From NCBI GenBank assembly GCA_041665365.1, contig JBAYIY010000002.1, positions 2,178 to 66,177 on the forward strand: a stretch of DNA of 64,000 bases. Reading direction: 5' to 3'. The translations under genes were made by a program, and so were the position numbers. This document shows, piece after piece, positions 5,574 through 63,047 of the stretch; the first letter of the stretch is position 1; each line of letters starts with the position of its first letter. The DNA comes from Patescibacteria group bacterium (GTDB lineage: Bacteria > Patescibacteriota > Patescibacteriia > UBA9570). Below the pieces are notes generated by a model that did not search any database, was not told where the DNA came from, and worked only from the letters and a program-made list of their open reading frames with translations.

Positions 5574-6473
5574 TTATTGTTTGTAAGTAACCACACTAAA
5601 CCCAGGCATATCATCAAAGAAAGAAACATCAGTTAGCTTCGCACGAGTATTCGTTGAACGTTGTGCAATACCGACTGATTGATTGAATGGATTACTGGTA
5701 ATGGTAATGTCAGCACCTGGCTGAAAATACTCTAGGAGTGGTTGGTCTGAAGCTGTGATAAAGATATCGGGAGTTTTAAGCATAATAGGTTGATCTAATG
5801 ATAACGTTTGGACAGTTTGGGTGTTTGGATCGTAGCTGAACCTAGCAAGTTCACGTTGTACTTGCACTGGTGGCATATTTTCAGATCCACTGGGTAACAG
5901 ATCATATAGTAACTTACTACGAACGCGAATGATGTATTGGTCGTGTGTTTTATCCCAATTACTATCCCAAAATGTATCAATGTAGGCTTCTGTGTTCCAA
6001 TCAAATTTTTGCGACAGGAGAGCCGTCACGTCAACACACGGTCCTAAAGTTTGGAAATCAAATGTGCTGATACAGTGAATTGAAGAATCGACTGGATTGT
6101 ATTCTAAAAAATCTTGCTGCGGTGAAAGTGATAAGTACTGGTACGTTCTATCAGCTGACTGCTCAATTAACTGGCTACCTTCTGGAGTTATGTAATAAAG
6201 ACCAGTGTCACCTACTAATAATTTTTGCGGTGACAAAAATTCTGTACTGGAGTCAGATTTGTAGGTAGTGTGCATCTTTCCATCTCCTGAAAATATATCC
6301 AACTTGTCATTACTATGAATCATAATTAGCGGCACACCATCATTCCATTGGATGGCAGACAAAGTGGCATTGTAGTTTGGTTGAGTAAGTCCTCCAAAAA
6401 AGTTTGATACCGTGGCTAAGATTATGAATAGATAGCTGATTAATGAAGGCATAATGTTATTACTTTTATACAT
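5574..6473 (-). CDS. Secreted hypothetical protein with an N-terminal signal/anchor
   Basis: Hydrophobic N-terminus MPSLISYLFIILATV; 299 aa. Confidence 0.5.
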   Translation of the reverse strand: MYKSNNIMPSLISYLFIILATVSNFFGGLTQPNYNATLSAIQWNDGVPLIMIHSNDKLDIFSGDGKMHTTYKSDSSTEFLSPQKLLVGDTGLYYITPEGSQLIEQSADRTYQYLSLSPQQDFLEYNPVDSSIHCISTFDFQTLGPCVDVTALLSQKFDWNTEAYIDTFWDSNWDKTHDQYIIRVRSKLLYDLLPSGSENMPPVQVQRELARFSYDPNTQTVQTLSLDQPIMLKTPDIFITASDQPLLEYFQPGADITITSNPFNQSVGIAQRSTNTRAKLTDVSFFDDMPGFSVVTYKQ

Positions 6474-6808: not shown

Positions 6809-9313
6809 CTAGCAGGGCGGTGCTGAGGTAGCGGTACCGAGATACCACCACTCGTAGTCGTCGTGACAACCGCCGGCGTAGTAGCCAGAGCAGCTGCCAT
6901 CACAACCTTCGTCCACCGTGCCGTCACAGTTGTTGTCGTTCCAGTCACCCCGTTCTGGTGCGCCCGAGTAGGTAGTTGCATCCCACCAGGCACAGTCGAA
7001 GGAGTCATCGTAGCCGTCGCCGTCCGAATCTGCCGCGCTGGAGCCGCAGACATAGGTTAGCGAACCGGTCGAGTAGTAACTTTCGTAGTCGTCGGTGCAG
7101 CCATCCCAGTAGGCGCCACCGCAACCGTAGTCACAGCTCTCGTCCGTGCTTCCATCACAATCGTTGTCGACCCAGTCGGCCAATTCAGGCGCACCGGGAT
7201 AGATGGACGCACTCCACCAACCACAATCGACAGTATCATCGTAACCGTCGCCGTCGTAGTCGCTGGCAGTGGGCGTACTGCAAGAGCTGCTCGACGCACA
7301 GTCGGAGTCTCCACAGTCCACTAGCCCATCCAGATCATTGTCCATGCCATCGGAACAGTAGAGTTCGGCGCAGGGCACATCGCCCCCAACGCAGTCATCA
7401 TCCGTTCCGTTGCCACAGATCTCTGGTGCTCCATAGTAGATGGCTGTGTTGCTGTCGTTGCAGTCATTTCCACCACAGCCCGTGGCCGTCTGGCCGTCAC
7501 CGTCGATGTCGCAGGAGGTATCGCTCTCGTCGGTGGTGTCACTCGTACTAGTCGTATCGTCCTCATCCATTGGATCGATCGCCATGCCGTTGAGTGATCG
7601 AACCTCTGTACTCGTCCGAACACCGAAGTTTCCGAACAGAATATGAGGCCGGCCGTAGGTTGAACTCAAACCAGTGATCAATTGAGACTGATCCACCTGC
7701 TCTTCGAAGCTGTTGCCGGCATTGCTCCGTGCCAGATACAGAGTTGTACCGTTGGAACGAATCAGATCGGCGTAGGCGTCGAGGTAGTCCAGAGGATAGA
7801 TGGTATAGTCACCATCCGTACCACCGACATCGGTACCCATCACTGCGATGGTGAAGGTACTCGTGCTGTTGTTATAGTGACCAGCTTCAATTTCCACACT
7901 GGAGTCACGTTCGTCGATGCGAATGATCTCATCGCTACCGTCACCATTAGTGTCGGCGACAACGAACTCATCCGTGGGCAATGCCCAACCAGTGCTGATG
8001 TTGGTCACGCTGCCAGAACTGCTCAGACGTTGCCAGGTCAGAGTGCTCCCCGAACCAGCGAAGGCTTCCGCCTCACCGTTGCCGTTGAAGTCGCCAACTA
8101 AGACGACACTACTGGTGGTTCCGAAGCTGGTGCTCCAGGTGACCGCGTCACCGAACCGACCGTTATCGCTGTCGTTGAGAAAGTACTTCCAAGTCAGAGT
8201 GCCGTCGGTGTTGGCGAAGACCAGAATCAGATCCGCGCGCCCATCTCCGTCCACATCATCCAAGAACGCTTTGACCGCTTCACCGGACGTCTTCTTCCAG
8301 CGGGTCTGAGTGTTGAGCTCTCCTTCCCCATTGGACAGGTAGACATTGGTGTAGGTGTAACCAGGCTTGATCCGCACTTGCACCAAGTCATCCCAGCCAT
8401 CGCTATTCATGTCTCCGGAGAGCCAGGACAGAATGGTGGCAGTAGAGCCAGTGTTGGTGTAGGAGAAGTAGTTACCGGACAGTGCAGTATCCTCACCCGA
8501 ACCCGTCACCTCGTAACCGTAGATGTCGAACTTGCCACTGCTGTTAGGTTCGACAGTCATGAGGTGAGTGGTGGTAGTAGTGGAGGTAGTGGCTGAGGAA
8601 GATCCGTCGTTTGTAGATTCGTAGTAGTTGCCTGCAACGTAATCCACAAACTGGATACCTTCCATTTCAACTCCATCAAGCTCACTGGTGTAGCTGTAGC
8701 CGCTGCCGTTGTACTTGATGGAGAAGTGCAGATGGGTACCAGTTGAATCTCCCGTCGTGCCAATCGCACCGAGAATTTCGCCCTGTGCCACGGTCTTGCC
8801 GATGTAGAGCGAAGACGGAATTGAATCCGCAGCGAGGTGGTAGTAGAGAGTGGTATATCCGTCACTGTGGTCGAGCTTGACGTAGCAAGCAAAATGACCT
8901 TCGCTCGCCTTGCCCTGAGTGCAGCCAGTCGTTACCATGTCAATGATCGTGCCAGCGGCGACTGCCACAGCAGGATCACCACTGTAGCGATCTTAGAAGT
9001 CGATGGCATAGTAGCCATTGTTGGCATCAGTATGCCATGAATCGATGCCACCATGTAGAATCTCGGCAACCACACCACCAGCTTCCACGTTGCACCGAAT
9101 GAGATCGCCAGGCTGCATCGGCATCTTGAGCTCGGGACCCGTATAGCCAGTGGCCTTGAGAGAAATACCCGATCGACCAGATGCACTGACATTGTCACCA
9201 CATTCAGCACCCGGCAGTGATGGATCACAATCGCCGAAGCTGCAGGCGACCAGATCGGCGAACCCGAACATCACGAAGAGGCTGATCATGAGGAGGCGGA
9301 TGTACCGTTCCAT
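6809..9313 (-). pseudogene. Secreted M23 (LytM-type) peptidase with FG-GAP repeats and a C-terminal Cys/Asp-rich repeat region. It is interrupted by an in-frame TAA at 8993-8995. It is compositionally foreign (GC-rich).
   Basis: ORFs 8993..9379 and 6809..8968 are in the same frame. The M23 block ...GYYAIDF*DRYSGDPAVAVAAGTIID...STGTHLHFS spans the stop. The region has RBS AGGAG and signal peptide MERYIRLLMISLFVMFGFADLVA. FG-GAP-like DVDGDGRADL/GDFNGNGEAEA/ADTNGDGSDEI repeats are followed by DxDxDG...CxxxDCDD...PGAPE..CDGxDNDCDG repeats. GC is about 55-60% against about 35% in the flanks. Confidence 0.55.
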
Positions 9314-9408
9314 TGGAAGACTCCTGGATTGTGAAGGAACGACTCTAGTCAAGAAGATTCCTGAGCTAGCAGAGCCCATCTAGTTGAAATAGATGGACCG
9401 GTGTTAAA

Positions 9409-10032
9409 TCAGAAATTAAATGTAATAGTAGATATAATCAATTCAACTTGTTTTTTATCTTCTTGTTTAGTGTTATTTGATAATATTGTAAAGTGTGCAT
9501 CTACTAAAGGATAATTATTAACCCAATACTCACTACTAATATCAGAAAAGAGTTCAGTTCCAGATTTTCCTCCTATTATGACCATTTTTTGTTCTAACCC
9601 CGGAACGCCATGGTCAATGTTTCTTTCGGGAAAAATTGTAAGCAGTATTTCCCCTTCCTTTGCTACCTGAACAACAGATACTTTTTTTCCTGGTAAAATC
9701 TTTGACACCAGATCAGTTTCTTGAACAGTTACATTAATGCCCACTGGATATTTAAAACTAAACCCATATTCATCATTCGTGTATGTTAACCAATCACTTG
9801 TATCCACTTCACTCACCTGTTCTGTATTAGTATTCTCATTGGTTACTACACCATTGATATTGTCATTTGAGTCCGTAACAACTACGTTAGTATTATCGTT
9901 TGTTGTATTTGTGTTTACCGTAACTGCATTGGTATTTATATTTGTTTTTTGAGTAGTTGTACAACTAGAGCCAGCTAAAAGTAGTGTGCAGGCAACTAAA
10001 GTGGTTAGTAAAGATAGTTTAGTTTTAAACAT
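9409..10032 (-). CDS. Lipoprotein, paralog A; Asn/Thr-rich linker followed by a conserved C-terminal domain
   Basis: MFKTKLSLLTTLVACTLLLAGSSC (lipobox-like). It shares ...DTSDW.TYTNDEYGFSFKYP with the 10405..11103 gene. Confidence 0.6.
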   Translation of the reverse strand: MFKTKLSLLTTLVACTLLLAGSSCTTTQKTNINTNAVTVNTNTTNDNTNVVVTDSNDNINGVVTNENTNTEQVSEVDTSDWLTYTNDEYGFSFKYPVGINVTVQETDLVSKILPGKKVSVVQVAKEGEILLTIFPERNIDHGVPGLEQKMVIIGGKSGTELFSDISSEYWVNNYPLVDAHFTILSNNTKQEDKKQVELIISTITFNF

Positions 10033-10099
10033 AAATTTAGAGTTAATAATAGTCTATATACTTGTACTATGGTCATAGAATGTTATTTAGTGCAATGAG

Positions 10100-10198
10100 T
10101 ATTCAGCGACGGCGTTAACTATAAAAAACTCAATTTGAGCCTAACATTAGATAAAATAAATAACAGGCGCATGTGGATAACATTTTTTAGCGACGGCT
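10100..10198 (+). repeat. Two-box repeat element, copy D (box1 10104-10114; TGTGGATAA 10172-10180), abutting a 5' stub of the M23 gene
   Basis: TTCAGCGACGGCGTTAAC...65 nt...ATGTGGATAACATTTTTTAGCGACGGCTC. Confidence 0.7.
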
Positions 10199-10300
10199 CT
10201 AAGATACTAATCATGAGGAGACGGATGTACCGTTCCATTGAGAGACTCCTGGATTGTGAAGGAACGACTCTAGTCAAGAATATTCCTGAGCTAGCTGTAC
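10199..10300 (-). repeat. Truncated duplicate (stub) of the M23-peptidase 5' region (promoter/RBS/first 14 codons), copy 1
   Basis: Near-identical to 9283-9372. It encodes MERYIRLLMISLF and then diverges exactly at the repeat-element boundary. Confidence 0.7.
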
Positions 10301-10404
10301 TCCTTCATATTCGTTAGAAATTGTATGAAGGAGTATGTGCTAAATCAAGAAGTAAAATTTCATTGTTCTAGTAAATTTCTGTGATTTATAAGTCATAAGG
10401 TCGT

Positions 10405-11103
10405 TTAAAATGTTAATGAATCTGCTACTTGTAAGAGGTCATCACTTATAGAAACATCTCCACTGATTGTTAAATTATTTTGTTTATCATTATAATTTGG
10501 TATCAATATATGTAGTGTATTAATTTTACTGCCATCAAAATCTGATATATCCTCAGTAACCTTAAGAGCAGGTTTGGTTCCGATAGTTATTTTCTCGACC
10601 GTCATTGTATTAGTTAGATTTCTATGTAGATCTTGCGCCAACTGATCATTTGTTTTTGTAAAATCAACTTTTGTGTAATCGAACCAACTGTTTGCATCAG
10701 ACGCATTTATAGTTTCTAAGCTATTACTTGATATCACCAAACGAGGGTTGCCAATTATGTCTTGCTTAAAATTATTTTCATCTCTAAAATTAATTGTCAA
10801 AAGAAATGGCACAGTATCACCTATCGAAACTTGCACGCTGCCCCACTCTTTTGGATACTTAAAACTAAACCCATATTCATCATTGGTATAAGTTTGCCAA
10901 TCACTAGTATCAATACCACTAACCTGCTCTACATTAGTATTGTCATTACTAACATTATCATTGGTGTTAGTTACAGCTTCAGTATTCACGTTATCGTTAA
11001 TAGTATTTGTATTTGTTTTTTGAGTAGTTGTACAACTAGAACCGACTAAAAGTAGTGTGCTGGCAGCGAAGGTGATTAGTAAAGCTAGTTTAGTTTGAAT
11101 CAT
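10405..11103 (-). CDS. Lipoprotein, paralog B
   Basis: MIQTKLALLITFAASTLLLVGSSCTTTQKTN..., paralogous to 9409..10032. Start chosen at MIQTKL (11103). The upstream promoter cassette is conserved. Confidence 0.6.
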   Translation of the reverse strand: MIQTKLALLITFAASTLLLVGSSCTTTQKTNTNTINDNVNTEAVTNTNDNVSNDNTNVEQVSGIDTSDWQTYTNDEYGFSFKYPKEWGSVQVSIGDTVPFLLTINFRDENNFKQDIIGNPRLVISSNSLETINASDANSWFDYTKVDFTKTNDQLAQDLHRNLTNTMTVEKITIGTKPALKVTEDISDFDGSKINTLHILIPNYNDKQNNLTISGDVSISDDLLQVADSLTF

Positions 11104-11177
11104 AAATTTAGAATTAAATAAATATAGTCTATATACCTGTACTATGGTCATAGAATGTTAGTTAGTGCAATAAGTAA

Positions 11178-11276
11178 CTAACGACGGCGCTAACACTAAA
11201 AAGCTCAATTTTAGCCTAACATTAGGTAAAATAAAATACAAATGTGTGTGGATAACATTTTTCAGCGACGGCTCAA
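11178..11276 (+). repeat. Two-box repeat element, copy E (TGTGGATAA 11247-11255), abutting M23 5' stub copy 2
   Basis: AACGACGGCGCTAAC...TGTGTGGATAACATTTTTCAGCGACGGCTCA. Confidence 0.7.
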
Positions 11277-11375
11277 AGAGGCTGATCATGAGGAGGCGGA
11301 TGTACCGTTCCATTGGAAGACTCCTGGATTGTGAAGGAACGACTCTAGTCAAGAAGATTCCTGAGCTAGCTGTAC
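11277..11375 (-). repeat. Truncated duplicate (stub) of the M23-peptidase 5' region, copy 2
   Basis: Identical to 9287-9372 over about 90 nt, including the AGGAG RBS and codons 1-14. Confidence 0.7.
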
Positions 11376-11509
11376 TCCTTCATATTCATTATAAATTGTA
11401 TGAAGGAGTATGTGCTAAATCAAGAAGTAAAACCTATTAGACACACAATTTTGTTTTAATGATTATATGATTTAATTAGTTATTGATTTATTATTCTGTC
11501 TAATATTAT

Positions 11510-12265
11510 TTATAATGGTTTAGGAATTCCACGTATGATTTTTCTATTAACAGCAATGGAATGATTTTGAATATAAACAAGTAATTGATCATTAGACATA
11601 TACGTTAACTCGTCAATCTCATTAATATCTGGAATGAAATATAACTCACCATCGCTTTCGACGGCCATAATAACCCGTCCTATTAATCGTTGTTGTAAAT
11701 CCTCATATAGCTCCTCATGACCACTAATAATACTACTACAGGTAGGCCCTTCTCCAAAATCTAGGCATGCTAAAGCCTGAATATCTAAATTAGATGCCGG
11801 TGTAACACGAAAATCACCAACAGCTGCTGCTTCCAAAAAAGCAGAATATATGTTTTTTGAACTCAACTTTTGTTTAAAACCGTCTGCTATCCAGTAATAC
11901 CTGTTTTTTACTTTATAAAACCCATCTGGTAAATATCTATTGATTATCGGTAAACCGTTGGCAGTATTTATCCAATACATTTTACCAGAGTGTTGTGCGC
12001 GTAAAATAACTTTTCCTTCTAAGATATTAAGTATGGGATCACAAAGTCTACCTAGCGGAGTTGTGACAGCATCACTGGGTACATTTTCGTTTGCAGTGTA
12101 ACAATGACTATTCAATAATTCTTTATAAACAGATTCACTAACACCAATAATATTAGGGGTAAGATTCACCACGGTCATAGCGTTTGTTAAAGACGGTAGT
12201 ACCAACGTAAGTACTAATAAACTAACAACTATAGTAGAGATAGTTATGTGTTTAGATCTAGTCAT
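11510..12265 (-). CDS. Secreted hypothetical protein
   Basis: Signal-peptide-like N-terminus MTRSKHITISTIVVSLLVLTLVLPSLTNA. It shares the same upstream promoter cassette as the lipoprotein paralogs. Confidence 0.5.
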   Translation of the reverse strand: MTRSKHITISTIVVSLLVLTLVLPSLTNAMTVVNLTPNIIGVSESVYKELLNSHCYTANENVPSDAVTTPLGRLCDPILNILEGKVILRAQHSGKMYWINTANGLPIINRYLPDGFYKVKNRYYWIADGFKQKLSSKNIYSAFLEAAAVGDFRVTPASNLDIQALACLDFGEGPTCSSIISGHEELYEDLQQRLIGRVIMAVESDGELYFIPDINEIDELTYMSNDQLLVYIQNHSIAVNRKIIRGIPKPL

Positions 12266-15773: not shown

Positions 15774-16166
15774 ATGGATTTGAATCGCGTATCATTAATT
15801 GGTAATTTAGCTATGGAACCAGAACACAAAACTTTACCATCTGGTGCCAGTATTACTCGCACTAGTCTGGCTACTAGTTTTGCCTGGAAAGATAGTAAAA
15901 CTAAAGAGTTAAAAGAAAAAACCGATTTCCACACCATCATTGGTTGGAATAAACTAGGTGAACGAATTCACCAGTATCTAAAAAAAGGCGACCGCATTTA
16001 CGTGGAAGGCCGATTGGATCATCATTCTTACGAAGGAAAGGATGGCATCACGAAATATTTTACCAACATTATTGCCGAACAGTTAATTATGTTAGGCAAA
16101 GGTAAACGTGAAGTCACCACCACCGATGAACCAATTGTGACCGAACCGGTGACGGAACCGTTTTAA
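15774..16166 (+). CDS. ssb: Single-stranded DNA-binding protein
   Basis: MDLNRVSLIGNLAMEPE...IGWNKLGERIHQYLKKGDRIYVEGRL; acidic C-terminal ...TEPF tail. Confidence 0.85.
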   Translation: MDLNRVSLIGNLAMEPEHKTLPSGASITRTSLATSFAWKDSKTKELKEKTDFHTIIGWNKLGERIHQYLKKGDRIYVEGRLDHHSYEGKDGITKYFTNIIAEQLIMLGKGKREVTTTDEPIVTEPVTEPF

Positions 16167-40646: not shown

Positions 40647-43247
40647 CTATTGCGGTACTCTCTTGCCAACAGGCTTAAGAAAAGTTATATTTAGCGGCGC
40701 TAGTGGGGCGTAGCCAAGTGGTAAGGCAATGGACTCTGAATCCATCATCGTAGGTTCGACCCCTACCGCCCCAGCCCCACCTGGAAAAATATTTTGATCT
40801 TCATAATGGATATGCAATTTTATTTTTCTTATGTCTGATTTATTGTTTACTTGATCGAGAGCCACTACTTTTATTGTCTTTGTCCGCTTAACGATAAATG
40901 AATGTACATATAGCCTTTTATGCCTAGTGGGCTTGGTATTATCTAGAGTATAATATAGTGTACAAGCTTCATTACAGGTCAAAACTAGTCTTTTTTGATG
41001 CCGATAATAACCACTTGTGACGCTAGTGTGAATGATTGGTTGTGTAGTATCTAAAGTTATTTTTGTCTCTACTGCAATACTTGTTAGCCCACTGGCAGTC
41101 TGCGCTTGAATAATTAAATTATTATCCCCTTCACTTAAGGTAACAACAAAATTCCACACAGTTTTATCATCCTGCGGAACTATTTCGACATCATTTAATG
41201 AAATGGCAGTGTTAGCTTCTTTGGTACCAGAGAGCGTTTGTGTACCTACTTTAGTTGGAGATAATACACTGTTAATCGTTGGAGATTCTGGTAAATTGGA
41301 TTGCAACAGTGCATTGTAGGCATTAATTCTTTTTCCGCTAACTGTTTTGCCAACTAATGAATCTAATGTATCACCAGTGGCTAACAATACTGTTTTTACT
41401 TGGTTAGATGTTAACATCGGTCGATACCCCATCAATAAAGCCGCTAAGCCAGCGACCTGCGGTGCTGCCATGGAAGTACCACTGTAATAATCATAGCTGT
41501 TATTACTGCCATCCCCCATATAATTTACAGAAATGTTATCTACTATACAACCACGGTATGTGTTATCGTTACCATCTGTTACCCAATGAAAACGAAACTG
41601 AAAATTACTCGTCAAATAACCATCTAAGGAAATATCATCAAAATAATGGTATGTATCATTGGTAGCATCCGAATCCATTTCTATATTATCCAAAATATAT
41701 TCATCAAATTTTTCTGCCCCATAGTAAGATACACTGACTGGTGTAAAAGTGACACCATCAGCACTAAATTCTAGTGTCATATAATCCACCGGGATATCAA
41801 CATATTGTGTATCGCAGCGAGCCCGAAAATTAAAAGTTGCCTCAGTACTAGCACCGCTTAAATCATAGAGTGGCGACAAAATATAACTATCACTATTTGC
41901 TGCATAATAATATCCGGTTGTAGCCACACCTGTGAGATCTGGGTACAGCACCTGGCCCCAGGAAGATGCCGCATTAAATGTTGCCACCGATCCGGCAGCC
42001 CAATTACCATTAATTATGGTCCAATTACTGGGTAAATTACCAGTTGTAATAGTGTTGAAAGTTTCATAAAAAGAGTAGTTTTCAGCCACACTACTATACA
42101 CATCAACTCCTGGTGCCGCTACATCGACAAAATTTTCTCCATAATCGGAAAATAAAGCTAACTCATCGTTCGAATCAGTTGCCGCCACACTAATTACATT
42201 GTCCAATCCTGCCCAGCAATCACTTGGATGTCCATAATCAGCTGGCACTACTACATAATTTGAGCCATCATGCTCAGCAGTATCATTGCCCGCTGCGGCA
42301 ATAAACAATCCAGGGAAATTATCAATCGCTTCGTAAGTTAATTCATCGTAAACAAAAAAACAAGCGAAAGATCCACCGCCAAAACTGGCATTAATGACGC
42401 TGGCATTATTTTCTTTAGAAAAATTAATCGATTTCATAATTTCTGTATCGTAGAAATAACCATCCGGCTGTGTCGCCTGCAACGCCATTATTTGCGCATT
42501 CGGTGCAACACCCATAATTCCATAACCATTGTTTTTTAGTGCAGCAATTGTTCCGGCCACATGTGTTCCGTGTGAATCATCATTGGGTAACGGATATTTG
42601 TCATTGTTGCCATAATCATAACCATGTGCACAACCACCAAGATAGTTACCATTTTCATCTTTGCAAGATGTACCATCCCACATGTGATTAGCAAGATCTG
42701 GATGATTATACCCCACACCCATATCAATTACCGCCACAATTACATCTAGATTTGTACCTTCATTGATAGACCAGGCTTCCGGCGCATCAATATCAGCGTC
42801 TGGTAGACCAGACACAGTGTTTATAGTTTGGCCAGTATTATCTAAACCCCAGAGATAATCCTTGTAAGGATCGTTCGTCTCAATGGCCAAATTACGATAA
42901 CGAAAATTAGGCTGTATAGACTCTATATTCGGATCATCTTTTAACCTGGTTATGGCTTCCAATACAGTTTCATTCTTAATCTTAAAAACTACAGCATTGG
43001 CAAATTTTAACGTTTCCTGACTAGTCAATTTATTTCCGTTACTAAAGCTACTCAGTTGATGACTGTTATTTAAGTCAATCTTACCAGATTTGAATTTGAT
43101 AATTATTTCATCTGGTGCATAATCGCCAATTTTTATGGTGCTAGTTTCAGCAGTACAGATATTACCGGCCACAAAAAACATGCTAACACTAAAAAAAATA
43201 TAAATTGTATTCTTTATTGACATTGTTATCACTTTCAATGATAACAA
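40647..43247 (-). CDS. Secreted subtilisin-like serine protease (S8) with large C-terminal extension domains
   Basis: Catalytic triad blocks VAVIDMGVGYNHPDL, HGTHVAGTIAA, GTSMAAPQVAGLAALL. The ORF continues antisense through the tRNA-Gln gene before reaching a stop. Confidence 0.8.
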   Translation of the reverse strand: MLSLKVITMSIKNTIYIFFSVSMFFVAGNICTAETSTIKIGDYAPDEIIIKFKSGKIDLNNSHQLSSFSNGNKLTSQETLKFANAVVFKIKNETVLEAITRLKDDPNIESIQPNFRYRNLAIETNDPYKDYLWGLDNTGQTINTVSGLPDADIDAPEAWSINEGTNLDVIVAVIDMGVGYNHPDLANHMWDGTSCKDENGNYLGGCAHGYDYGNNDKYPLPNDDSHGTHVAGTIAALKNNGYGIMGVAPNAQIMALQATQPDGYFYDTEIMKSINFSKENNASVINASFGGGSFACFFVYDELTYEAIDNFPGLFIAAAGNDTAEHDGSNYVVVPADYGHPSDCWAGLDNVISVAATDSNDELALFSDYGENFVDVAAPGVDVYSSVAENYSFYETFNTITTGNLPSNWTIINGNWAAGSVATFNAASSWGQVLYPDLTGVATTGYYYAANSDSYILSPLYDLSGASTEATFNFRARCDTQYVDIPVDYMTLEFSADGVTFTPVSVSYYGAEKFDEYILDNIEMDSDATNDTYHYFDDISLDGYLTSNFQFRFHWVTDGNDNTYRGCIVDNISVNYMGDGSNNSYDYYSGTSMAAPQVAGLAALLMGYRPMLTSNQVKTVLLATGDTLDSLVGKTVSGKRINAYNALLQSNLPESPTINSVLSPTKVGTQTLSGTKEANTAISLNDVEIVPQDDKTVWNFVVTLSEGDNNLIIQAQTASGLTSIAVETKITLDTTQPIIHTSVTSGYYRHQKRLVLTCNEACTLYYTLDNTKPTRHKRLYVHSFIVKRTKTIKVVALDQVNNKSDIRKIKLHIHYEDQNIFPGGAGAVGVEPTMMDSESIALPLGYAPLAPLNITFLKPVGKRVPQ
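40704..40776 (+). tRNA. tRNA-Gln (anticodon CUG)
   Basis: TGGGGCG acceptor, D-arm GCCAAGTGGTAAGGC, anticodon loop CTCTGAA, T-arm GTAGGTTCGACCCCTAC. It closely resembles E. coli tRNA-Gln. Confidence 0.85.
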
Positions 43248-43268: not shown

Positions 43269-44813
43269 TTATTTACCGCTCTGACCACCCACCGATTGCA
43301 GGGCTAGATCCCACACATTATCCATTTCAACTGGATTAACCTGAGCAATATTATCTGATGGTAAAGTGTTTAGTACTGAGGCATCGATATCGTACTGCTC
43401 CCCCACTACACATTCTAGTTGCATGTCTTGATTTAATAATTGGGATAATATTTTTCTAATGGCGGTGATGTAATCTACTTTGCAGACTTGATCTTTATGA
43501 AAATCATAGCGAAAACCTAACTGCACGCGGTTTGGTGCATAGGCATTGGCGACATGAGCCATTGATAAAGCAATCGCCAGGGCATGATTGACTACTTTGG
43601 TTTTACTAATCACTTCGGCCCAGTGTTCTTTTACTTTATGTAATAAAACTGTATCAACGGTTGTCTCAACACTAGTTGAAATTACTGGTGTCTTGTTAAC
43701 AACCGAATTAGTGATTGGAGCGATTTTCTTTTGTATAATTGTTTGTTTCGGTTGAGTTACAACCACACTACTGGTACACCAAGTTAAACCAGGTACTTCA
43801 ATCATCAATTGTGTTATTGGGCTACTGCGATACAGATCACCGGCAGACATAAACAGATTTAATAAATGCACATAATCGGCCGTGGTGAGTAAAGACAGTG
43901 TGGCTAATAACTGTTCATGAGTGCCACTATGCACATCTAAATCTTCGAGGTGGGTTAATTGCTGATCCACACTAAATAACAAACCGCGCCGGAATAATTC
44001 TAGTAACAACTGCCATAATTCTTTCATTTGTGTACCGGCTTGCACGGCGGTTTGTACTGAATTAGTAAAAGCTTGAGCTTGGCGTTGAGTTAAATGGGTA
44101 AACAACTCAACCGCAATGGCCATATCCACACGGGGCAAGACAATATCCGCTTGCTCAACGGTGATTTTATCACCCCCAATCGCTAACACTTGGCCTAATA
44201 AACTTTCCGCATCGCGCACTGCTCCCTGACCTTTACGCGCAATGCGCTCCAACACCGCTTGGTCAACTTGCACGTGTTCTTGAGTACAAATCCACTCTAA
44301 CCGTTTGATAATATCCAGCAACTTGATGGCATGAAAATCAAACCGTTGGCAGCGCGATACTACTGTGGCCGGTAATTTATGTACCTCGGTAGTGGCTAAA
44401 ATAAACACCACATTAGCCGGTGGTTCTTCTAAGATTTTTAATAAGGCATTAAACGCTGAGCCGGATAACATGTGCACTTCATCGATGATGAAAACCTTAT
44501 AGGGTAACTGGCTTGGTGCCACATAAGCATTTTGAATAATATTCTCGCGCACGTTATCTACCCCAGTATGGCTAGCCGCATCGATTTCGATAATATCAAT
44601 ATACGTGGCCGTATTATCTGTCACCTGGTTGATAGTTTTAGCAAAGATTCGAGCTAAGGTAGTTTTACCCACCCCCCGTGGCCCAGCAAACAAGTAAGCA
44701 TGCGCAATTTGCTGGTGTTTAATTTGATTTTGCAAAGTAGTCTTAATATGATCTTGAGCGATCACAGCCGAGAAATCTTGCGGGCGGTATTTTCGATAGA
44801 GGGCGATGGACAT
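43269..44813 (-). CDS. dnaX: DNA polymerase III subunit gamma/tau
   Basis: YRPQDFSAVIAQDHIKTTLQNQIK...AYLFAGPRGVGKTTLARIFAK. Confidence 0.9.
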   Translation of the reverse strand: MSIALYRKYRPQDFSAVIAQDHIKTTLQNQIKHQQIAHAYLFAGPRGVGKTTLARIFAKTINQVTDNTATYIDIIEIDAASHTGVDNVRENIIQNAYVAPSQLPYKVFIIDEVHMLSGSAFNALLKILEEPPANVVFILATTEVHKLPATVVSRCQRFDFHAIKLLDIIKRLEWICTQEHVQVDQAVLERIARKGQGAVRDAESLLGQVLAIGGDKITVEQADIVLPRVDMAIAVELFTHLTQRQAQAFTNSVQTAVQAGTQMKELWQLLLELFRRGLLFSVDQQLTHLEDLDVHSGTHEQLLATLSLLTTADYVHLLNLFMSAGDLYRSSPITQLMIEVPGLTWCTSSVVVTQPKQTIIQKKIAPITNSVVNKTPVISTSVETTVDTVLLHKVKEHWAEVISKTKVVNHALAIALSMAHVANAYAPNRVQLGFRYDFHKDQVCKVDYITAIRKILSQLLNQDMQLECVVGEQYDIDASVLNTLPSDNIAQVNPVEMDNVWDLALQSVGGQSGK

Positions 44814-44831: not shown

Positions 44832-44879
44832 AAAAAAAACTGGGGGGTCAAGTAGTTGTCTTAGACGATTTACCCCCCA
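44832..44879 (-). terminator. Rho-independent terminator for the 44870..45454 gene
   Basis: Stem TGGGGGGT/ACCCCCCA followed by T8 on the minus strand (A8 at 44832-44839 on plus). Confidence 0.55.
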
Positions 44880-45454
44880 CTGGGCAATTCAGCGGCATCG
44901 CCTAGGGGTAAAAGTTCTTCGTCAGAATCACGATGAATGAGGTTTTCCACAGCGGCCCATTGGCTCTCACCATCTTCCGGGGTCAATATCACTACTTCAT
45001 CACCGGGCTGACCTTTATAGTAAGTCACCGCGGCTAAAATCACTCGGTACGAACGCTTCCCGACTAAAACGCTGAGCTCGCCAGTACTATCATCCCGGAC
45101 TAAAGCGCCCACCATGCGTTTTCGTTCGACTGGTCCAATTTGTTTATAGATAAAAGTACCATCCGATTTAATGGTTAATTTCAGGATATCGCCCTCAACC
45201 AGCTTGGATTTAGACGCATAATTAGATGGCACGGTATACACTTTACCATCGGCGCCAACCATATTTTGCCCATTAAACACACCTTCAATCACCTGATTAT
45301 TACCAACAAAAGACGGCTCAGTGGTTACACCGGTCATACTCACACGATCTAACTCACTACTGTCGATATTATCTAATAATTGTTGGGCGTAGTGCAATTG
45401 AGAGGTAGCATTGGCTAGGGCTTGACGCACTTCATGTAGGCTGGGAGTATCCAT
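44870..45454 (-). CDS. Hypothetical protein (downstream partner of the AAA_10 ATPase)
   Basis: 194 aa; no TM; no recognised motifs. Confidence 0.45.
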   Translation of the reverse strand: MDTPSLHEVRQALANATSQLHYAQQLLDNIDSSELDRVSMTGVTTEPSFVGNNQVIEGVFNGQNMVGADGKVYTVPSNYASKSKLVEGDILKLTIKSDGTFIYKQIGPVERKRMVGALVRDDSTGELSVLVGKRSYRVILAAVTYYKGQPGDEVVILTPEDGESQWAAVENLIHRDSDEELLPLGDAAELPSGG

Positions 45455-45489: not shown

Positions 45490-48033
45490 TTAAAAAAATG
45501 AATCGGGACTAGTTAAGTCTGAACCGCCGCCTAATTGATCTAATTTGCCGCGTTCAATAACTTCGGCCTCCACAATAGCGCGATCCCGGCCAAACTTCAA
45601 GCGGGATAACTGTTTTAACTGGTTAGCCAACTCAATATTGCCGGGTGGCGGCATGATGGTTTTCATGTTGAATGGCCGACAGACGGTGTTATCGATCAAC
45701 AATTTAATATTAGCGGTATATTTTTCCACATTGATCACATCGTTTTCATCAAACACGGGAGCAAACTCTTTAGCGATCATTTCAGCATCTTCCACACCAA
45801 TCCGGAAAGCGACTTTGGTACCAACGTTGCCAAACACCGCATCTCGAATTTGGGTGTCATTATCTTTCACCAACTGCGAAATATACTGGTGAGCCAGTAT
45901 CATATCTAAGCGATATTTTCTAGCCTCAGATAAAATAATCGCAATTGAGTCGGTACAATAATTTTGAAACTCATCAATGTAGCAATAAAAATCTTTGCGC
46001 TGTTCTTTGGGCATGTTGGCGCGCCCCATGGCCGCCATTTGAATTTTGGACACCATAATCAAACCTAACAAACTGCTGTTCACTTCACCAATCGCACCCT
46101 TAGATAAATTCACCAATAATATTTTCTGATTATCCATGATATCACGCACATTAAAACCGGATTTGGTTTGACCGACAATATTACGCATCATGTCGTTGGT
46201 TAAGAACCGACCAATCTTGGAAATAACGTAAGACAACATATCGGCGGCTTGTTGTCCGGCTTGAGATTGTTCATACTCTTGTTCCCAGAAATTTTTTACA
46301 ATCAAATTTTTGACATGCTTCAATTTTTCTTTGCGGAATTTAGCATCGGTAAACATGCGCGGAATTTCGATCAAACTCGACCCGGCCTCTTTATCATCCA
46401 TCATCGCCAACATAGCATTACGCATGTAATGTTCAAACATCGGGCCAATCATTTCTTGGCCAAACAATTTATAAAAAATCGCCACCATTTCCTGTACAGC
46501 AAAATCTTTCTGTTCGTCAGTATCATATTCCAACATATTCAAACCAACTGGCCGCTCAATATCCCCGGGTGAAAAAATCACTACATCATCAGCCCGTTCT
46601 TTCGGAATGTGCTCGAGCACATCTTGGACTAAATCACCATGCGGATCAATAATACACACGCCTTCACCATTTTCTACATCCTGAATGGCTAATTGCGATA
46701 ACATCACCGATTTACCAGAACCAGTTTGCCCAATCACATACATATGCCGTTGCCGATCCGGCCGCTTTATGCGCACATCAGTGGTGACACCACGATATTC
46801 CACAAAGCCTAACTTCACCCCTTCTTTGGGCATGTTAAATGGCGGCGCGGCTTTTTTGGATAACAGCCAGCGAATATTTGGCGTTTCAGTGGTGGGTAAC
46901 GGCATGTGATACAGCGTGCAAATTTCCTTGGTGTTTAAAATAAACGATTTCTTTTGATCAAACGTGCGATAAATAAAATGCTCAAGCTCTTTTTTATTAA
47001 CACTCGGTTTGGAATTTTTAAATTCGTTCGCATACAACGTGCCAGAGTATTGTGAAAAGGCACCTAAAATAGTGTGGGTTTTATATTCAGCAATCTCCTT
47101 GGTGGAAGCCGATACCACTACTCGAATATTAACATCAAAGCCAGGATTACCGGCTTTTTCCTCAAAGCCTTTCACCACTTCTTCTTCCATAGGTGATAAA
47201 CGATATTCTCGCTCTGTTCTAATATCTATGCCCTGTTCACGTTTGGCTCGACTCTTAAAAAACATGTACTTTAAATCTATCCACAAACGATAAAAAATAA
47301 AACCGGCTACTTCGGCGCGGGCTTGCTCATATTTCTTACCCTGGTGCATCACAGCGGCAATGCGGGCTGGAATTCTGGCCCAACGCGAGTGGTTCGGCCG
47401 AATGATGAATTGAACGGCGGCGCCTTCATGCTTTTCAAATTTAGACATGACATTCGTTAAAGCATTCATCGGGTCAACTTCCAACTTGTTATAAATCAAA
47501 ATCGGAAATTCCTGACTCTTCTTCAAGCTCAGCCGTGCTGCCACTACCACTCCATTGGGTTCAAACACATTATAATCTTCCACCTCATCAATCACGGCAT
47601 CATCGTATTGCGCCTGAAACTGTTGTTCAAAATATGTTTTAAACCGGTGTGGTACAACCGCGTAATAAGTGATTAATTGATCCTTATCCGCCACAATCTC
47701 AAAACTAAAATGATCATCACCACCAAACCAAAATTCCGTCCACTTGGATTCATGCGGCACTTGGTGAATGGCACCATAAAACGCTTCGGCAATACTAATG
47801 CGGGCTTCTTCTGATTGTTTGCGATAAGACGGATTATCACCCGATTGTTTTTCTTTCAAATCTTCCTTCGGTACGCGCAACATTAAGATAGCGCGTTTCA
47901 TACTATCAGCTCGATGCACAGAACGACGCGTAAAATTTCTGATTTGAAAAATTAGTACCACTATACTAACTCCAGTCAATCCGACATAGAGCATGAAGGC
48001 GATGGTTGGATACTGTTGTATATAATCCACCAT
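45490..48033 (-). CDS. Membrane-anchored VirB4/TraC/CagE-like (AAA_10) P-loop ATPase, type-IV-secretion-type
   Basis: N-terminal TM; Walker A YVIGQTGSGKSVMLSQL...GVCIIDPHGDL; Walker B FYCYIDEFQNY; RKYRLDMILAHQYISQL motif; 847 aa. Confidence 0.5.
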   Translation of the reverse strand: MVDYIQQYPTIAFMLYVGLTGVSIVVLIFQIRNFTRRSVHRADSMKRAILMLRVPKEDLKEKQSGDNPSYRKQSEEARISIAEAFYGAIHQVPHESKWTEFWFGGDDHFSFEIVADKDQLITYYAVVPHRFKTYFEQQFQAQYDDAVIDEVEDYNVFEPNGVVVAARLSLKKSQEFPILIYNKLEVDPMNALTNVMSKFEKHEGAAVQFIIRPNHSRWARIPARIAAVMHQGKKYEQARAEVAGFIFYRLWIDLKYMFFKSRAKREQGIDIRTEREYRLSPMEEEVVKGFEEKAGNPGFDVNIRVVVSASTKEIAEYKTHTILGAFSQYSGTLYANEFKNSKPSVNKKELEHFIYRTFDQKKSFILNTKEICTLYHMPLPTTETPNIRWLLSKKAAPPFNMPKEGVKLGFVEYRGVTTDVRIKRPDRQRHMYVIGQTGSGKSVMLSQLAIQDVENGEGVCIIDPHGDLVQDVLEHIPKERADDVVIFSPGDIERPVGLNMLEYDTDEQKDFAVQEMVAIFYKLFGQEMIGPMFEHYMRNAMLAMMDDKEAGSSLIEIPRMFTDAKFRKEKLKHVKNLIVKNFWEQEYEQSQAGQQAADMLSYVISKIGRFLTNDMMRNIVGQTKSGFNVRDIMDNQKILLVNLSKGAIGEVNSSLLGLIMVSKIQMAAMGRANMPKEQRKDFYCYIDEFQNYCTDSIAIILSEARKYRLDMILAHQYISQLVKDNDTQIRDAVFGNVGTKVAFRIGVEDAEMIAKEFAPVFDENDVINVEKYTANIKLLIDNTVCRPFNMKTIMPPPGNIELANQLKQLSRLKFGRDRAIVEAEVIERGKLDQLGGGSDLTSPDSFF

Positions 48034-48036
48034 AAT

Positions 48037-48570
48037 TTATTGATGTTTGCGCCGCAACATTTCGGCTTGCCCTAGTTTCATAATCTCATCGGTTTTTAGT
48101 TTAGCCTCTTGCTCTAAAAAATAACGATTGATACCAGGAATCATTTTCAACCACGCCCGAATGAGTTCAATCACTTTGCGCGCGGTTAATTTCAAATGTA
48201 CGGTTAATTCTTCAATGACTTTGGCGATCTCCTCGCCTCGTTTACGAAATTTCTCTTGTTGAGCCGGTGTCATCGTATGATAAACATCCCCTAACCCATC
48301 AGCCATTACTTCTTCATATTTATCTTGCAACTGACTTTTACCGGTATCGTCAGTCATTATTTCGTCTTTTTTTTGTCTGGCTTGCTTGATAACATATGGA
48401 GATTCATCTGGTTTCTCCTCATTCACTTGTTTATACTGCTCAAAGGCCTGCTCAGTAGTAGATTTTACTTCCGCTGGTTTTTGTACCTCAACCGGCTTAA
48501 CTGTGGGAGCAAGATGATCGGGTAATTTTATTTCGGCTGGCTCGTGAGACATTCCATTACTATAACACAA
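48037..48570 (-). CDS. Hypothetical protein (upstream partner of the ATPase)
   Basis: 177 aa; charged, coiled-coil-like; 3-nt gap to the ATPase gene. Confidence 0.4.
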   Translation of the reverse strand: MCYSNGMSHEPAEIKLPDHLAPTVKPVEVQKPAEVKSTTEQAFEQYKQVNEEKPDESPYVIKQARQKKDEIMTDDTGKSQLQDKYEEVMADGLGDVYHTMTPAQQEKFRKRGEEIAKVIEELTVHLKLTARKVIELIRAWLKMIPGINRYFLEQEAKLKTDEIMKLGQAEMLRRKHQ

Positions 48571-51988: not shown

Positions 51989-52618
51989 CTACTCTCTATT
52001 TCTTCCCACTACAATCATAGCCACGATCGGGGCGGCGATCCAGGCAAAATGAGTCCACTCGTTAGTGAAGATATATTGCGTTAAAGGCGAAAATTTATTC
52101 AGGATATTTACCGGCATAAAAGACAGTGTCACGGACACGAGTAAACCCACATGGAGTATGCTGAACACTAAAGTCTGCCACCACTTCCCTTCTCCATTTG
52201 GAGCCAGCGCATTCAACACCGCTTGGCGCGATAACAAAAAGAATAACACAATAAACACAGCAATAAACGCCGTAATCTGCACCGTGTAACTATCATTCAC
52301 TTTAATATTCAAAACAAAATCCGGTAACGCCGCTACTACCGCTAGCGCCATGTAAATACTAACCATGATGGCAATAATACGATCTTTTCCCAGAGATAAA
52401 CCATAAAGTAAAGCTCCCACAATAAAAAAACCAACTAGAAAAAGATCCCAAGTTGGATTATTCAAATCAATTTTCTTTAAGGCCGTATCAATATTAACCT
52501 GAGCGGAAGAAATCGTTTCACCCGAATTCGTTGCCGCATTGGTGTTTGTTACTGTGCCTGTGGCCGTGTTGGTATTAGTAACAACTGTAATATTTTTTTT
52601 AACTGTTTTGTCTTTCAT
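51989..52618 (-). CDS. Hypothetical membrane protein
   Basis: Thr/Asn-rich N-terminus followed by about 5 TM segments. Confidence 0.45.
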   Translation of the reverse strand: MKDKTVKKNITVVTNTNTATGTVTNTNAATNSGETISSAQVNIDTALKKIDLNNPTWDLFLVGFFIVGALLYGLSLGKDRIIAIMVSIYMALAVVAALPDFVLNIKVNDSYTVQITAFIAVFIVLFFLLSRQAVLNALAPNGEGKWWQTLVFSILHVGLLVSVTLSFMPVNILNKFSPLTQYIFTNEWTHFAWIAAPIVAMIVVGRNRE

Positions 52619-61670: not shown

Positions 61671-63047
61671 TTATTTCTTATACTGCACACTCGCCACAGC
61701 CATGGCTTGATGCAAAAAACCGGCAAAGCGACGCATGGCGTCAGTTACACCCTGATCAACCTTATGATTAGGGGTTATTTTTGGCAAGATAACCCCAACG
61801 AAACCCACGGAAACGTCATTATTGAGTAATGGAAGGATGTATTGAGTATTAGAATTAAGTTGTTTCATAAATTTGTGTGAAACAGCGTCGATCGATAGCA
61901 TGGTGTTATTTTTTAGAAGATTCGTCATATGATCATCAGGTTGCACTTGAACCAGTTCGTCCCCCACCTTAAAAAAGGTATTGTTTTGGGAATCGAATAG
62001 AAAAATATCAGTGGTAACAATGTCAAATTCATCAACTAAGTATAGTTTTATTCTTTGTATCAACCATTCCACGGACATATCCATCGGCCGATGTTCCGGT
62101 AAAGCAAAGCACAGCGATGATTGTTTACTGAGATAATGACTAAAATGTAACAATATAACCATATCAATTACACCAATTACAAATAACACAACCGCCTGTA
62201 CAACAAATAAATTTGTAAACTGCTGTATTAGATATGATACTGCAATCAATACAATAACCAACATGCTAATAATAAATCCAAGAATTATTTGCCCACGTAA
62301 ACGAATAGTGATATCAAACAAACGATACCGAGTTATGGCATAAGCTGTAGTGGTTGTCCAAACACTGGTTATGGTGGCACTTAAAATCAGCACACTAACA
62401 AATTGATCTGAACCCAATAAGTAAAGTTTATCAGGCCAGATGATACCAAATATTAACGGGATAATAATCGTACAAAGAGTAGCTAATAATGAAAATAATA
62501 AACTATTACGGACTAATGATTGTCTGGCATTTTCTAACTTAGATGTTCCAGATTTAACTACGCGAAAAAATAATAAATAGAGTGCCAATGTTATCATGAC
62601 AGCAAATGCCCCATAATAAAACATCATCCCCCAAGAATTTGATTCTATTATATAGTTATGATATTTAGAACCAACATAAAGACGTGAACCGACACCAATT
62701 ATTGGTATCATCATACACACAAGAACTAACACAATAAAACCAATCATTTTAATCCATGGCAACACTTTTGTTTCTGAATAGTTTACTAAAAAACCTAAAG
62801 TACTAAACATAATTAAATACCCAAATAAAAATTCTACTCTATCAATAAAATTATTACCATATATGCCATGATCGGTATATTGAGAAAACCAAAAAAATAT
62901 TTCCCAGATAACCATGGAACTCAACGCGATGCTAAACCACAAGATAGTTTTGTTCCAGCGACCTTTAGCAATTAGTATAATTGATACAATCGCATCAAAG
63001 GCGATGGTGATTGGTAGAACATATTTTAGAATGGTGATGAGAAGCAT
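61671..63047 (-). CDS. Polytopic membrane protein with a C-terminal soluble domain (possibly GAF-like)
   Basis: About 10 TM segments followed by about 150 aa of cytoplasmic domain. No kinase motifs. Confidence 0.45.
   Translation of the reverse strand: MLLITILKYVLPITIAFDAIVSIILIAKGRWNKTILWFSIALSSMVIWEIFFWFSQYTDHGIYGNNFIDRVEFLFGYLIMFSTLGFLVNYSETKVLPWIKMIGFIVLVLVCMMIPIIGVGSRLYVGSKYHNYIIESNSWGMMFYYGAFAVMITLALYLLFFRVVKSGTSKLENARQSLVRNSLLFSLLATLCTIIIPLIFGIIWPDKLYLLGSDQFVSVLILSATITSVWTTTTAYAITRYRLFDITIRLRGQIILGFIISMLVIVLIAVSYLIQQFTNLFVVQAVVLFVIGVIDMVILLHFSHYLSKQSSLCFALPEHRPMDMSVEWLIQRIKLYLVDEFDIVTTDIFLFDSQNNTFFKVGDELVQVQPDDHMTNLLKNNTMLSIDAVSHKFMKQLNSNTQYILPLLNNDVSVGFVGVILPKITPNHKVDQGVTDAMRRFAGFLHQAMAVASVQYKK

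Follow-up and report, generated by a model that had tools for sequence, protein, structure and literature searches.

We analysed a 64-kb stretch of DNA from an ultra-small Patescibacteria group bacterium (64,000 nucleotides of contig JBAYIY010000002.1, in the following the window) and characterized in it the gene of a membrane-anchored ATPase together with its small upstream neighbour, which we call UP. In conjugative plasmids a coupling motor feeds DNA into the secretion channel. Our best reading is that the ATPase is a domesticated, chromosomally fixed protein of this kind, i.e. a type IV coupling protein (T4CP) of a monoderm/archaeal variant that consists of a transmembrane (TM) helix, a DUF8128 domain and a motor with a helical insert. 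In ABY1-type Patescibacteria it has lost its relaxase and VirB4 neighbours and gained UP. UP and the ATPase are the conserved pair of the locus, with UP being a true partner. With a probability of about 0.45 this pair serves a distant type IV secretion system (T4SS).

A first-pass annotation, made from the sequence of the window, had described the locus as a membrane-anchored VirB4/AAA_10-type ATPase with two uncharacterised partner proteins. All three open reading frames (ORFs) were found on the minus strand as proposed there, and direct translation reproduced the TM helix, the long N-terminal domain and all quoted motifs. For UP the ATG at 48552 (MSHEPAE...), which is also used in the public gene call, is the likelier start. 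Only 3 nucleotides (nt) separate the UP stop codon from the ATG of the ATPase gene. The features of the pair are:

48037..48552, minus strand: UP, upstream gene, 171 amino acids (aa); the maximal ORF from a TTG extends to 48570 and has 177 aa (ORF list, public gene call)
45490..48033, minus strand: ATPase, 847 aa, a DUF8128-T4CP; whole gene with its stop codon (ORF, profile searches)
47941..48009, minus strand: single N-terminal TM helix, residues 9-31, PTIAFMLYVGLTGVSIVVLIFQI (translation, Kyte-Doolittle hydropathy, AlphaFold2 (AF2) model)
46774..47898, minus strand: DUF8128 (PF26449) N-domain, residues 46-420, alpha/beta (Pfam label, AF2, Foldseek)
45544..46773, minus strand: nucleotide-binding domain of the VirD4/TrwB-type T4CPs, residues 421-830 (Pfam, NCBIfam, PDB)
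46708..46731, minus strand: Walker A, GQTGSGKS, residues 435-442 (direct translation)
46630..46653, minus strand: IIDPHGDL, residues 461-468 (direct translation)
45958..45987, minus strand: Walker B, YCYIDEFQNY, residues 683-692 (direct translation)
45871..45903, minus strand: AHQ...QL motif, MILAHQYISQL, residues 711-721 (direct translation)
Residues 500-640 approximately, between Walker A and Walker B: inserted helical region at the position of the all-alpha domain (AAD) (conservation profile)
45493..45543, minus strand: variable C-terminal tail ...GGGSDLTSPDSFF with a hydrophobic last residue (tails of relatives)

The TM segment PTIAFMLYVGLTGVSIVVLIFQI reached a Kyte-Doolittle 19-mer maximum of 2.49, and the AF2 model placed a helix over residues 9-45 at the N-terminus. 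Directly behind the TM helix follows the basic stretch RNFTRRSVHR, such that the positive-inside rule predicts a cytoplasmic location for the bulk of the protein.

The ATPase is a membrane-anchored member of the T4SS-family ATPases within the FtsK/HerA superfamily. Judged by sequence profiles its motor belongs to the VirD4/TrwB-type T4CPs and not to VirB4 or FtsK, since the best matches in Pfam, NCBIfam and PDB were all T4CP models. In Pfam the matches to TrwB_AAD_bind (E = 1.7e-12, 47.4 bits vs a gathering threshold of 20.5, residues 425-771), T4SS-DNA_transf (8.8e-9, 35.2 bits vs 20.1) and TraG-D_C (6e-7, 29.9 bits vs 22) all passed, in agreement with the coupling-protein alternative that the first-pass annotation had also offered. 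While these domain cut-offs were reached, the full-length equivalog cut-offs of NCBIfam were far missed: the best families, VirD4-like CD1115 and TraD, scored 47.7 vs a cut-off of 250 and 45.5 vs 366, and no full-length curated T4CP equivalog of NCBIfam matched at cut-off. Among PDB sequences TrwB (6e-7) and DotL were the only relatives. The VirB4/AAA_10 class that had been proposed for the protein did not hold. AAA_10 reached 15.0 bits vs a cut-off of 27.5 and VirB4_CagE (TIGR00929) 23.4 bits vs 643, and in an hhalign comparison with a genuine VirB4 of a plasmid cluster the P-loop alone was aligned (2.4% probability); the likeness to VirB4 survives solely in the fold of the N-domain. A grouping with the FtsK chromosome translocases, which would have spoken against the original proposal, was not seen either. 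FtsK_SpoIIIE matched at E = 0.022 and 14.6 bits vs a cut-off of 24, confined to the P-loop (residues 425-448), and a Pfam scan of the ATPase did not find the KOPS-binding, winged-helix gamma domain of FtsK.

With the VirD4/TrwB T4CPs (TrwB of R388, PDB 1E9R; TraD; PcfC; DotL) the ATPase shares a P-loop motor with the motif series GxxGxGKS ... DPxGD ... DEF/hhhDE ... AxQ..SQL, with a helical domain inserted between Walker A and B. Shared as well are the TraG-D_C region, a membrane anchor at the N-terminus and a tail at the C-terminus. Two TM helices are usual in canonical T4CPs. The ATPase differs from them by having a single one, by the extra DUF8128 of approximately 375 aa between anchor and motor, and by its chromosomal location with no relaxase, oriT context or channel genes nearby. 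A further difference is that the helical insert (residues ~500-640) is the most conserved part of the protein and not the most variable one. Conservation calculated per 20-residue block from 79 sequences was 0.75-0.93 for the motor and the helical insert and 0.5-0.75 for the N-domain. In a 12-sequence alignment of relatives (down to 50% identity) the mean column identity was 66%, and the residues of Walker A, Walker B and AHQY..QL were invariant. The tails of 45 relatives ended in ...GPDSF[FIM], ...ERTL or ...TRNM. By analogy with the C-terminal tail of TraD, on which this idea is modelled, the tail may be a docking motif.

The label DUF8128 (PF26449) is a precomputed Pfam assignment, carried by the identical public protein and by all 120 listed relatives, one of which is named 'DUF8128 domain-containing protein' in UniRef. 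In our local profile libraries, among them a Pfam copy without PF26449, the first ~420 residues found no match, and the name DUF8128 did not occur in the papers covered by a literature search. An AF2 model of residues 1-425 had a mean predicted local distance difference test score (pLDDT) of 90.8 and a predicted template modelling score (pTM) of 0.88. When this model was compared with the PDB using Foldseek, ranks 1-12 were all occupied by TrwK/VirB4 of R388, with a best E of 1.4e-4 and TM-scores of 0.34-0.38. This weak match suggests a fold similar to the N-terminal domain of VirB4. As a query on its own the N-domain retrieved proteins of Bacillota and haloarchaeal plasmids at 3e-18 to 1e-7, the value of 3e-18 being obtained for Bacillota megaplasmids.

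Relatives of the whole protein were found on mobile elements. A tblastn search against PLSDB provided matches on 277 plasmids (Bacillus, Streptomyces, Clostridium, haloarchaea, Sulfolobus), of which the best-covered ones extended over query residues ~100-830 and thus over both domains. The identity of the mobile-element relatives to the ATPase was 20-31%. The homologue on a 24.7-kb plasmid of B. subtilis (WP_121549396.1, 'DUF87 domain-containing protein') aligned with residues 95-813 (hhalign 99.9%, E = 1.9e-36); its gene immediately precedes a Replic_Relax gene, with TcpE and a true AAA_10 VirB4 (3e-116) encoded downstream. On a linear plasmid of Embleya the homologue WP_331738717.1 is preceded by PrgI and a VirB4-like ATPase and followed by a relaxase-like gene and NlpC/P60. 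The two domains may also be separate. On the Halomontanus rarus plasmid NZ_CP135526.1 (L088) the DUF8128-like domain is a gene of its own (391 aa, 7785-8960) that overlaps the start of a 1,026-aa T4CP (8950-12030) and is flanked on its other side by a 1,105-aa conjugal transfer protein; this haloarchaeal split pair is WP_317175933.1 and WP_317175934.1. In Bacillus phage G (JN638751.1, L090) gp156, annotated as 'MsbA-like', has the DUF8128-T4CP architecture and comes right after the VirB4-like gp155, the two resembling an ATPase pair of the T4SS type, here in a jumbo phage. The same architecture is represented by phrog_5156, which matches the ATPase at 2.4e-80 and is listed in PHROGs under 'unknown function'.

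The true sister group of the ATPase consists of the DUF8128-T4CPs carried by mobile elements of monoderms and archaea. They have the same two-domain architecture and are homologous from end to end, and their place is that of the T4CP, next to relaxase-like genes and VirB4. Unlike the ATPase they reside in conjugation or T4SS-like clusters, in the Bacillus and Embleya plasmids with a Replic_Relax gene in addition. A relaxase and a T4SS channel in the vicinity, as expected for a T4CP, were found for the plasmid relatives but neither in the window nor in 80 related Patescibacteria loci. In the two plasmid loci searched for them (L086 and L087) no homologues of UP or of the gene downstream of the ATPase (DOWN, see below) were detected.

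The identical public protein is NCBI MFA6474827.1 from a Patescibacteria metagenome-assembled genome (MAG), annotated as 'type IV secretion system DNA-binding domain-containing protein'. A homology search scored over 2,000 relatives; the best 120 all had ~820-890 aa and the identical domain set. Since the exact protein and such a number of homologues are on record, the feature is far beyond chance. To collect loci we scanned the GTDB species representatives with peptide patterns of close relatives, a procedure that reports only relatives of at least 47% identity. This provided 80 loci (47-87% identity) in Kerfeld-, Falkow-, Uhr-, Magasanik- and Komeilibacteria-type genomes, in which synteny was followed by iterative hidden Markov model searches. 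After clustering all neighbouring ORFs, only housekeeping families and no T4SS components were found within +/-6 kb in the 80 species loci. The flanking genes, UP as well as DOWN, were syntenic in the related loci and did not show the free variation that would have spoken against the first-pass annotation. The relatives are highly conserved, syntenic chromosomal genes of ABY1-type lineages, and the ATPase gene is under very strong purifying selection in a fixed housekeeping synteny. Many of the MAG records that carry the Patescibacteria genes (L006, L007, L010, L012 and others) are titled 'uncultured Gammaproteobacteria bacterium', which appears to be a submitter placeholder that misleads name-based taxonomy.

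UP was present in 73 of the 77 loci with enough upstream sequence. In 68 it adjoined the ATPase gene on the same strand, typically at a distance of 0-20 nt. The protein has a variable, disordered N-terminal half rich in P, E and Q and a conserved C-terminal helical domain of ~90 aa with the pattern ...W134-L-x-x-I-P-G-x-N-x-x-F-L-E-Q-x-x-K-x-K..., in which W134, L135, I138, P139, F145, L146, E147, Q148, K151 and K153 were invariant in the alignment. A profile of UP found 1,803 clusters at 50% identity among 1.84 billion representatives. As 1,709 of them had E <= 1e-10, the family is sharply bounded. Its best 150 members were all stand-alone proteins of 119-270 aa. Profile searches of Pfam, NCBIfam, PHROGs and PDB sequences gave no match for UP, and its only match in PADLOC was a weak one to Csm2 (E = 0.0054). 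One locus of Kerfeldbacteria (L053:5458-8535, JACPUP010000068.1) contains a single in-frame ORF of 1,025 aa that comprises UP (residues 64-162) and the ATPase (residues 182-1021). This is either a natural fusion or a stop codon lost in the MAG or by an assembly error. Because of translational coupling, near-universal adjacency and the one fusion, UP is probably a dedicated cytoplasmic adaptor or regulator of the ATPase. A Kyte-Doolittle analysis found no hydrophobic segment in UP or DOWN, such that both are soluble, as had been stated in the first-pass annotation. UP was also considered as an analogue of VirB3 and rejected as such, since it has no TM segment.

The second proposed partner, DOWN, is followed by dnaX:

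44870..45454, minus strand: DOWN, downstream gene, 194 aa (ORF, AF2 model)
43269..44813, minus strand: dnaX, clamp-loader gamma/tau, the neighbour 3' of DOWN (Pfam labels DNA_pol3_delta2 and DNAX_ATPase_lid)

The gap between the ATPase stop and the start of DOWN is 35 nt, that between DOWN and dnaX 56 nt. Among the loci with full downstream flank DOWN was found in 43 of 50, and in 22 of 50 it lay within 300 nt of the ATPase gene. Its distance to dnaX was at most 230 nt in 40 of 51 loci; dnaX itself lay downstream in 45 of 50 related loci with full flanks. DOWN is therefore a syntenic neighbour whose linkage to dnaX is closer than that to the ATPase. Of the two partners originally proposed, UP proved to be a tight one, whereas about half of the loci did not have DOWN next to the ATPase, and it followed dnaX; likewise the search for the three-gene block in related genomes returned a conserved UP-ATPase pair but not a conserved trio. 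We treat dnaX as context and do not claim it as part of the machine. In 21 of the 80 related species a class-I S-adenosylmethionine (SAM) methyltransferase of ~176 aa is inserted between the ATPase and DOWN (e.g. L057:8491-9021, L032:8520-9056 and L020:7252-7788). It weakly resembles small-molecule, protein or RNA methyltransferases and does not occur in the window. A few related genomes carry a 1,400-aa beta-helix protein at the same place.

In its AF2 model (pLDDT 86.5) DOWN has an N-terminal helix (residues 6-29), a linker, two beta-barrels similar to oligonucleotide/oligosaccharide-binding (OB) or cold-shock domains (about residues 48-120 and 127-173, the core being encoded at 44930..45319) and an acidic tail. 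The Foldseek matches were weak yet all OB/cold-shock-like: the best was CSD789 of Unr (1.8e-3), followed by the Mpa OB ring, RNase R, the single-stranded DNA-binding protein (SSB) of D. radiodurans, IF1 and the cold-shock domain (CSD) of Rho, and for IF1 and Rho CSD the single-domain matches had probabilities of 0.96-1.0. No sequence match was obtained in Pfam, NCBIfam, PHROGs, PADLOC or PDB. The family is very large, with at least 7,998 matches, all 'hypothetical' and from Patescibacteria. From the model DOWN is probably a separate, Patescibacteria-wide OB-fold protein that binds nucleic acids; a functional link to the motor is conjecture. The window has a canonical SSB gene at another place (15774..16166, plus strand, PF00436, E = 3.7e-29), and for this reason DOWN was rejected as a candidate for the standard SSB of the cell.

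For the ATPase and UP we propose the following scheme. Like other members of its family the ATPase would assemble into a hexameric ring that is anchored in the membrane and faces the cytoplasm. At the expense of ATP it would recruit a polymer substrate, either DNA or unfolded protein, and push it. Most likely the pair would feed a relaxase-less Patescibacteria T4SS that is encoded elsewhere in the genome and would act as its substrate receptor. UP, as the dedicated adaptor or regulator, would replace the relaxosome or VirB4 contacts that the plasmid relatives have in cis. The 'minimal secretion or DNA-translocation module' suggested in the first-pass annotation may, judged from these sequence data, describe the pair.

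A domesticated T4CP fits the published picture of the Patescibacteria T4SS. In the survey of Quinonero-Coronel et al. 2025 (PMC12102498) 5,713 VirD4-type T4CPs were counted in 2,918 of 3,035 Patescibacteria genomes, only 148 of them near virB4, and T4CP genes were often far from virB4 even in working systems. The T4SS itself was described there as monophyletic, derived from MPF-FATA and mostly relaxase-less in 2,417 genomes, and the virB4 loci of ABY1 accompany comF, recG and radA, not the ATPase locus (PMC12102498). The ATPase fits the orphan T4CPs of this survey, whose function was considered possibly 'exapted'. Its membership in the surveyed T4CP set is inferred, and in two supplementary files of that paper its accessions were not found.

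Several observations weigh against service to a T4SS. Pfam scans of the ORFs and the contig labels showed no VirB4, VirB6, VirB8, pilin or relaxase gene in the window, as the first-pass annotation had noted for T4SS genes in general. With no T4SS component there or within +/-6 kb of the 80 related loci, coupling to a T4SS is unsupported by linkage. The contact between UP and the ATPase is deduced from gene order and from the one fusion, which may be a lost stop codon or an assembly error. T4CP homologues occur in ~500 more genomes than VirB4 (PMC12102498). [quoted passage not shown] The wider spread of T4CPs and this lack of co-essentiality keep a T4SS-independent role alive. Finally, the taxonomic breadth of the pair was established within ABY1-type lineages.

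The alternative to which these points lead is a stand-alone translocase, i.e. a UP-T4CP pair exapted for T4SS-independent housekeeping as a membrane-anchored hexameric pump for DNA or protein. Its possible roles include nucleic-acid handling at the membrane, movement of chromosomal or plasmid DNA, and import or export of host polymers, in which DOWN with its tandem OB-like folds and acidic tail might join. We regard this as the less likely of the two. A precedent is provided by TraB of Streptomyces, where such a motor works without a T4SS channel (PMC12857230). TraB and FtsK/SpoIIIE belong with the ATPase to a superfamily of membrane-anchored hexameric translocases, in which the hexamer is inferred for the ATPase; unlike them it has a different N-domain, no winged-helix gamma domain and an FtsK_SpoIIIE match limited to the P-loop. 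The fixed housekeeping position near dnaX, the absence of T4SS genes near the locus in 80 species and the extreme conservation typical of a core gene agree with a stand-alone function, and the authors of the survey themselves stated that 'exaptation cannot be ruled out' (PMC12102498). On the other hand, every non-Patescibacteria relative that we examined resides in a mobile element next to a VirB4-type or conjugal-transfer ATPase or conjugal-transfer genes, and working systems, too, often have their T4CP genes far from virB4 (PMC12102498). Further points against it are that half of the genomes do not have DOWN next to the ATPase and that it follows dnaX, that the window holds a canonical SSB, and that DNA binding of all three proteins is putative. 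Somewhat more doubtful still is the stronger version of this alternative, in which UP and the DUF8128-T4CP would be a core machine that ABY1-type and perhaps most Patescibacteria use independently of the T4SS. Its conjugation coupling motor would stem from a mobile element of monoderms, a new adaptor would have rewired it, and the pair would move nucleic acid or protein alone at the membrane.

The remaining explanations concern other classes of ATPases. A second, divergent VirB4 that powers pilus or channel assembly rather than substrate recruitment would account for the size of ~850 aa, for the plan of a ~400-aa N-domain and a C-terminal TrwB-like motor, and for the significant PDB matches of the N-domain model, all of which were TrwK/VirB4 (R388; PDB 7O43, 8RTD). 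The small upstream gene, once fused to the N-terminus, also recalls VirB3-VirB4, for which fusions are described (PMC12102498). We nevertheless find it improbable: the ATPase lacks membership of VirB4/AAA_10 at the sequence level, with both profiles far under their cut-offs and the alignment to a true VirB4 restricted to the P-loop (2% probability), the TM-scores are low, and UP, in contrast to VirB3, is devoid of a TM segment. Plasmids and phage G have a separate true VirB4 in addition to the family member, which takes the relaxase-adjacent T4CP slot. Very improbable is a three-gene, ATPase-based defence system against phages or plasmids, which the first-pass annotation had considered. The PADLOC model mad8 (MADS) does match the ATPase core (E = 9e-16) and a small SAM methyltransferase follows the ATPase in 21 of 80 related loci, but the mad8 match covers just the generic T4CP-like motor and the methyltransferase is absent from the window. 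UP with its weak Csm2 match and DOWN with none fit no complete system known to PADLOC, and neither a nuclease nor another effector is present at the locus. Moreover, the locus is fixed, single-copy, vertically inherited and highly conserved among housekeeping genes; defence systems, by contrast, occur patchily and on islands. Least probable of all is a translocase for chromosome segregation of the FtsK/SpoIIIE type. The common superfamily, the membrane anchor and the housekeeping context close to dnaX would suit it; the subthreshold FtsK_SpoIIIE match, the missing gamma domain and the best matches, all to T4CP models, do not, and in at least one Patescibacterium, TM7x, a separate ftsK is annotated (PMC10768705).

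A large part of bacterial diversity consists of Patescibacteria, which are unable to make nucleotides, lipids or most amino acids. How they obtain these building blocks from their hosts is a question that the UP-ATPase pair touches. In a recent perspective the role of the T4SS in Saccharibacteria was called 'completely unknown' (PMC11665869), while in S. epibionticum, the one Patescibacteria species tested, the T4SS was essential (PMC12102498). The class of the ATPase is not categorically new, because it is annotated in databases and was counted in the 2025 survey (PMC12102498). The survey did not describe the DUF8128 domain, and we found no description of its probable VirB4-like fold, of the spread of this domain, fused with T4CPs or split from them, in plasmids, phage G and archaea, of the conserved partner UP, or of the synteny with dnaX and the OB protein. 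One orphan T4CP has now a defined anatomy, with a VirB4-like N-domain, a T4CP motor, a monoderm conjugative origin and a specific partner. The label 'possibly exapted' becomes testable by the binding of UP to the motor, the substrate of the pair and its dependence on VirB4. In addition, the fused and split versions bear on the divergence of VirB4 and VirD4. Should the pair turn out to be the distal coupling protein of the T4SS, this would be a useful annotation and no surprise. A T4SS-independent machine would be a new kind of housekeeping translocase, e.g. for host-derived DNA or nucleotides and possibly acting with the OB-fold protein DOWN.

The window as a whole is a chromosomal segment of ~40% GC with housekeeping genes. 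According to Pfam scans of the ORFs and the contig labels it comprises the dcw cluster, glycogen enzymes, histidine kinases and hrcA-grpE-dnaK-dnaJ, further cysS, dus, corA, dnaX, an S8 protease and SSB. A scan for promoters and terminators in it remained at chance level, such that the operon structure gains nothing firm from it. A few small ORFs are without any Pfam match. Several sizeable ones also lack a match, namely 51989..52618, 61671..63047, 5574..6473 and 11510..12265 (all minus strand); one of them, located between dnaJ and dus, encodes a multi-pass membrane protein of 209 aa. A tRNA-Gln(CTG) at 40704..40776 on the plus strand (ARAGORN and Rfam, 67.7 bits) is antisense to the S8 subtilase-like ORF at 40647..43247 on the minus strand, where it covers part of the last ~43 codons; the public gene call (858 aa) crosses the tRNA as well. 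Either the genes truly overlap or the real C-terminus of the protease is shorter than the ORF. Between positions ~6000 and 10000 the GC content rises to 0.48-0.49, compared to ~0.40 elsewhere. This stretch contains an ORF (6809..8968, minus strand) for a protein of 719 aa that may be secreted and act in lysis or adhesion; it combines FG-GAP repeats and metal-binding motifs of the MopE type with an M23 peptidase domain.

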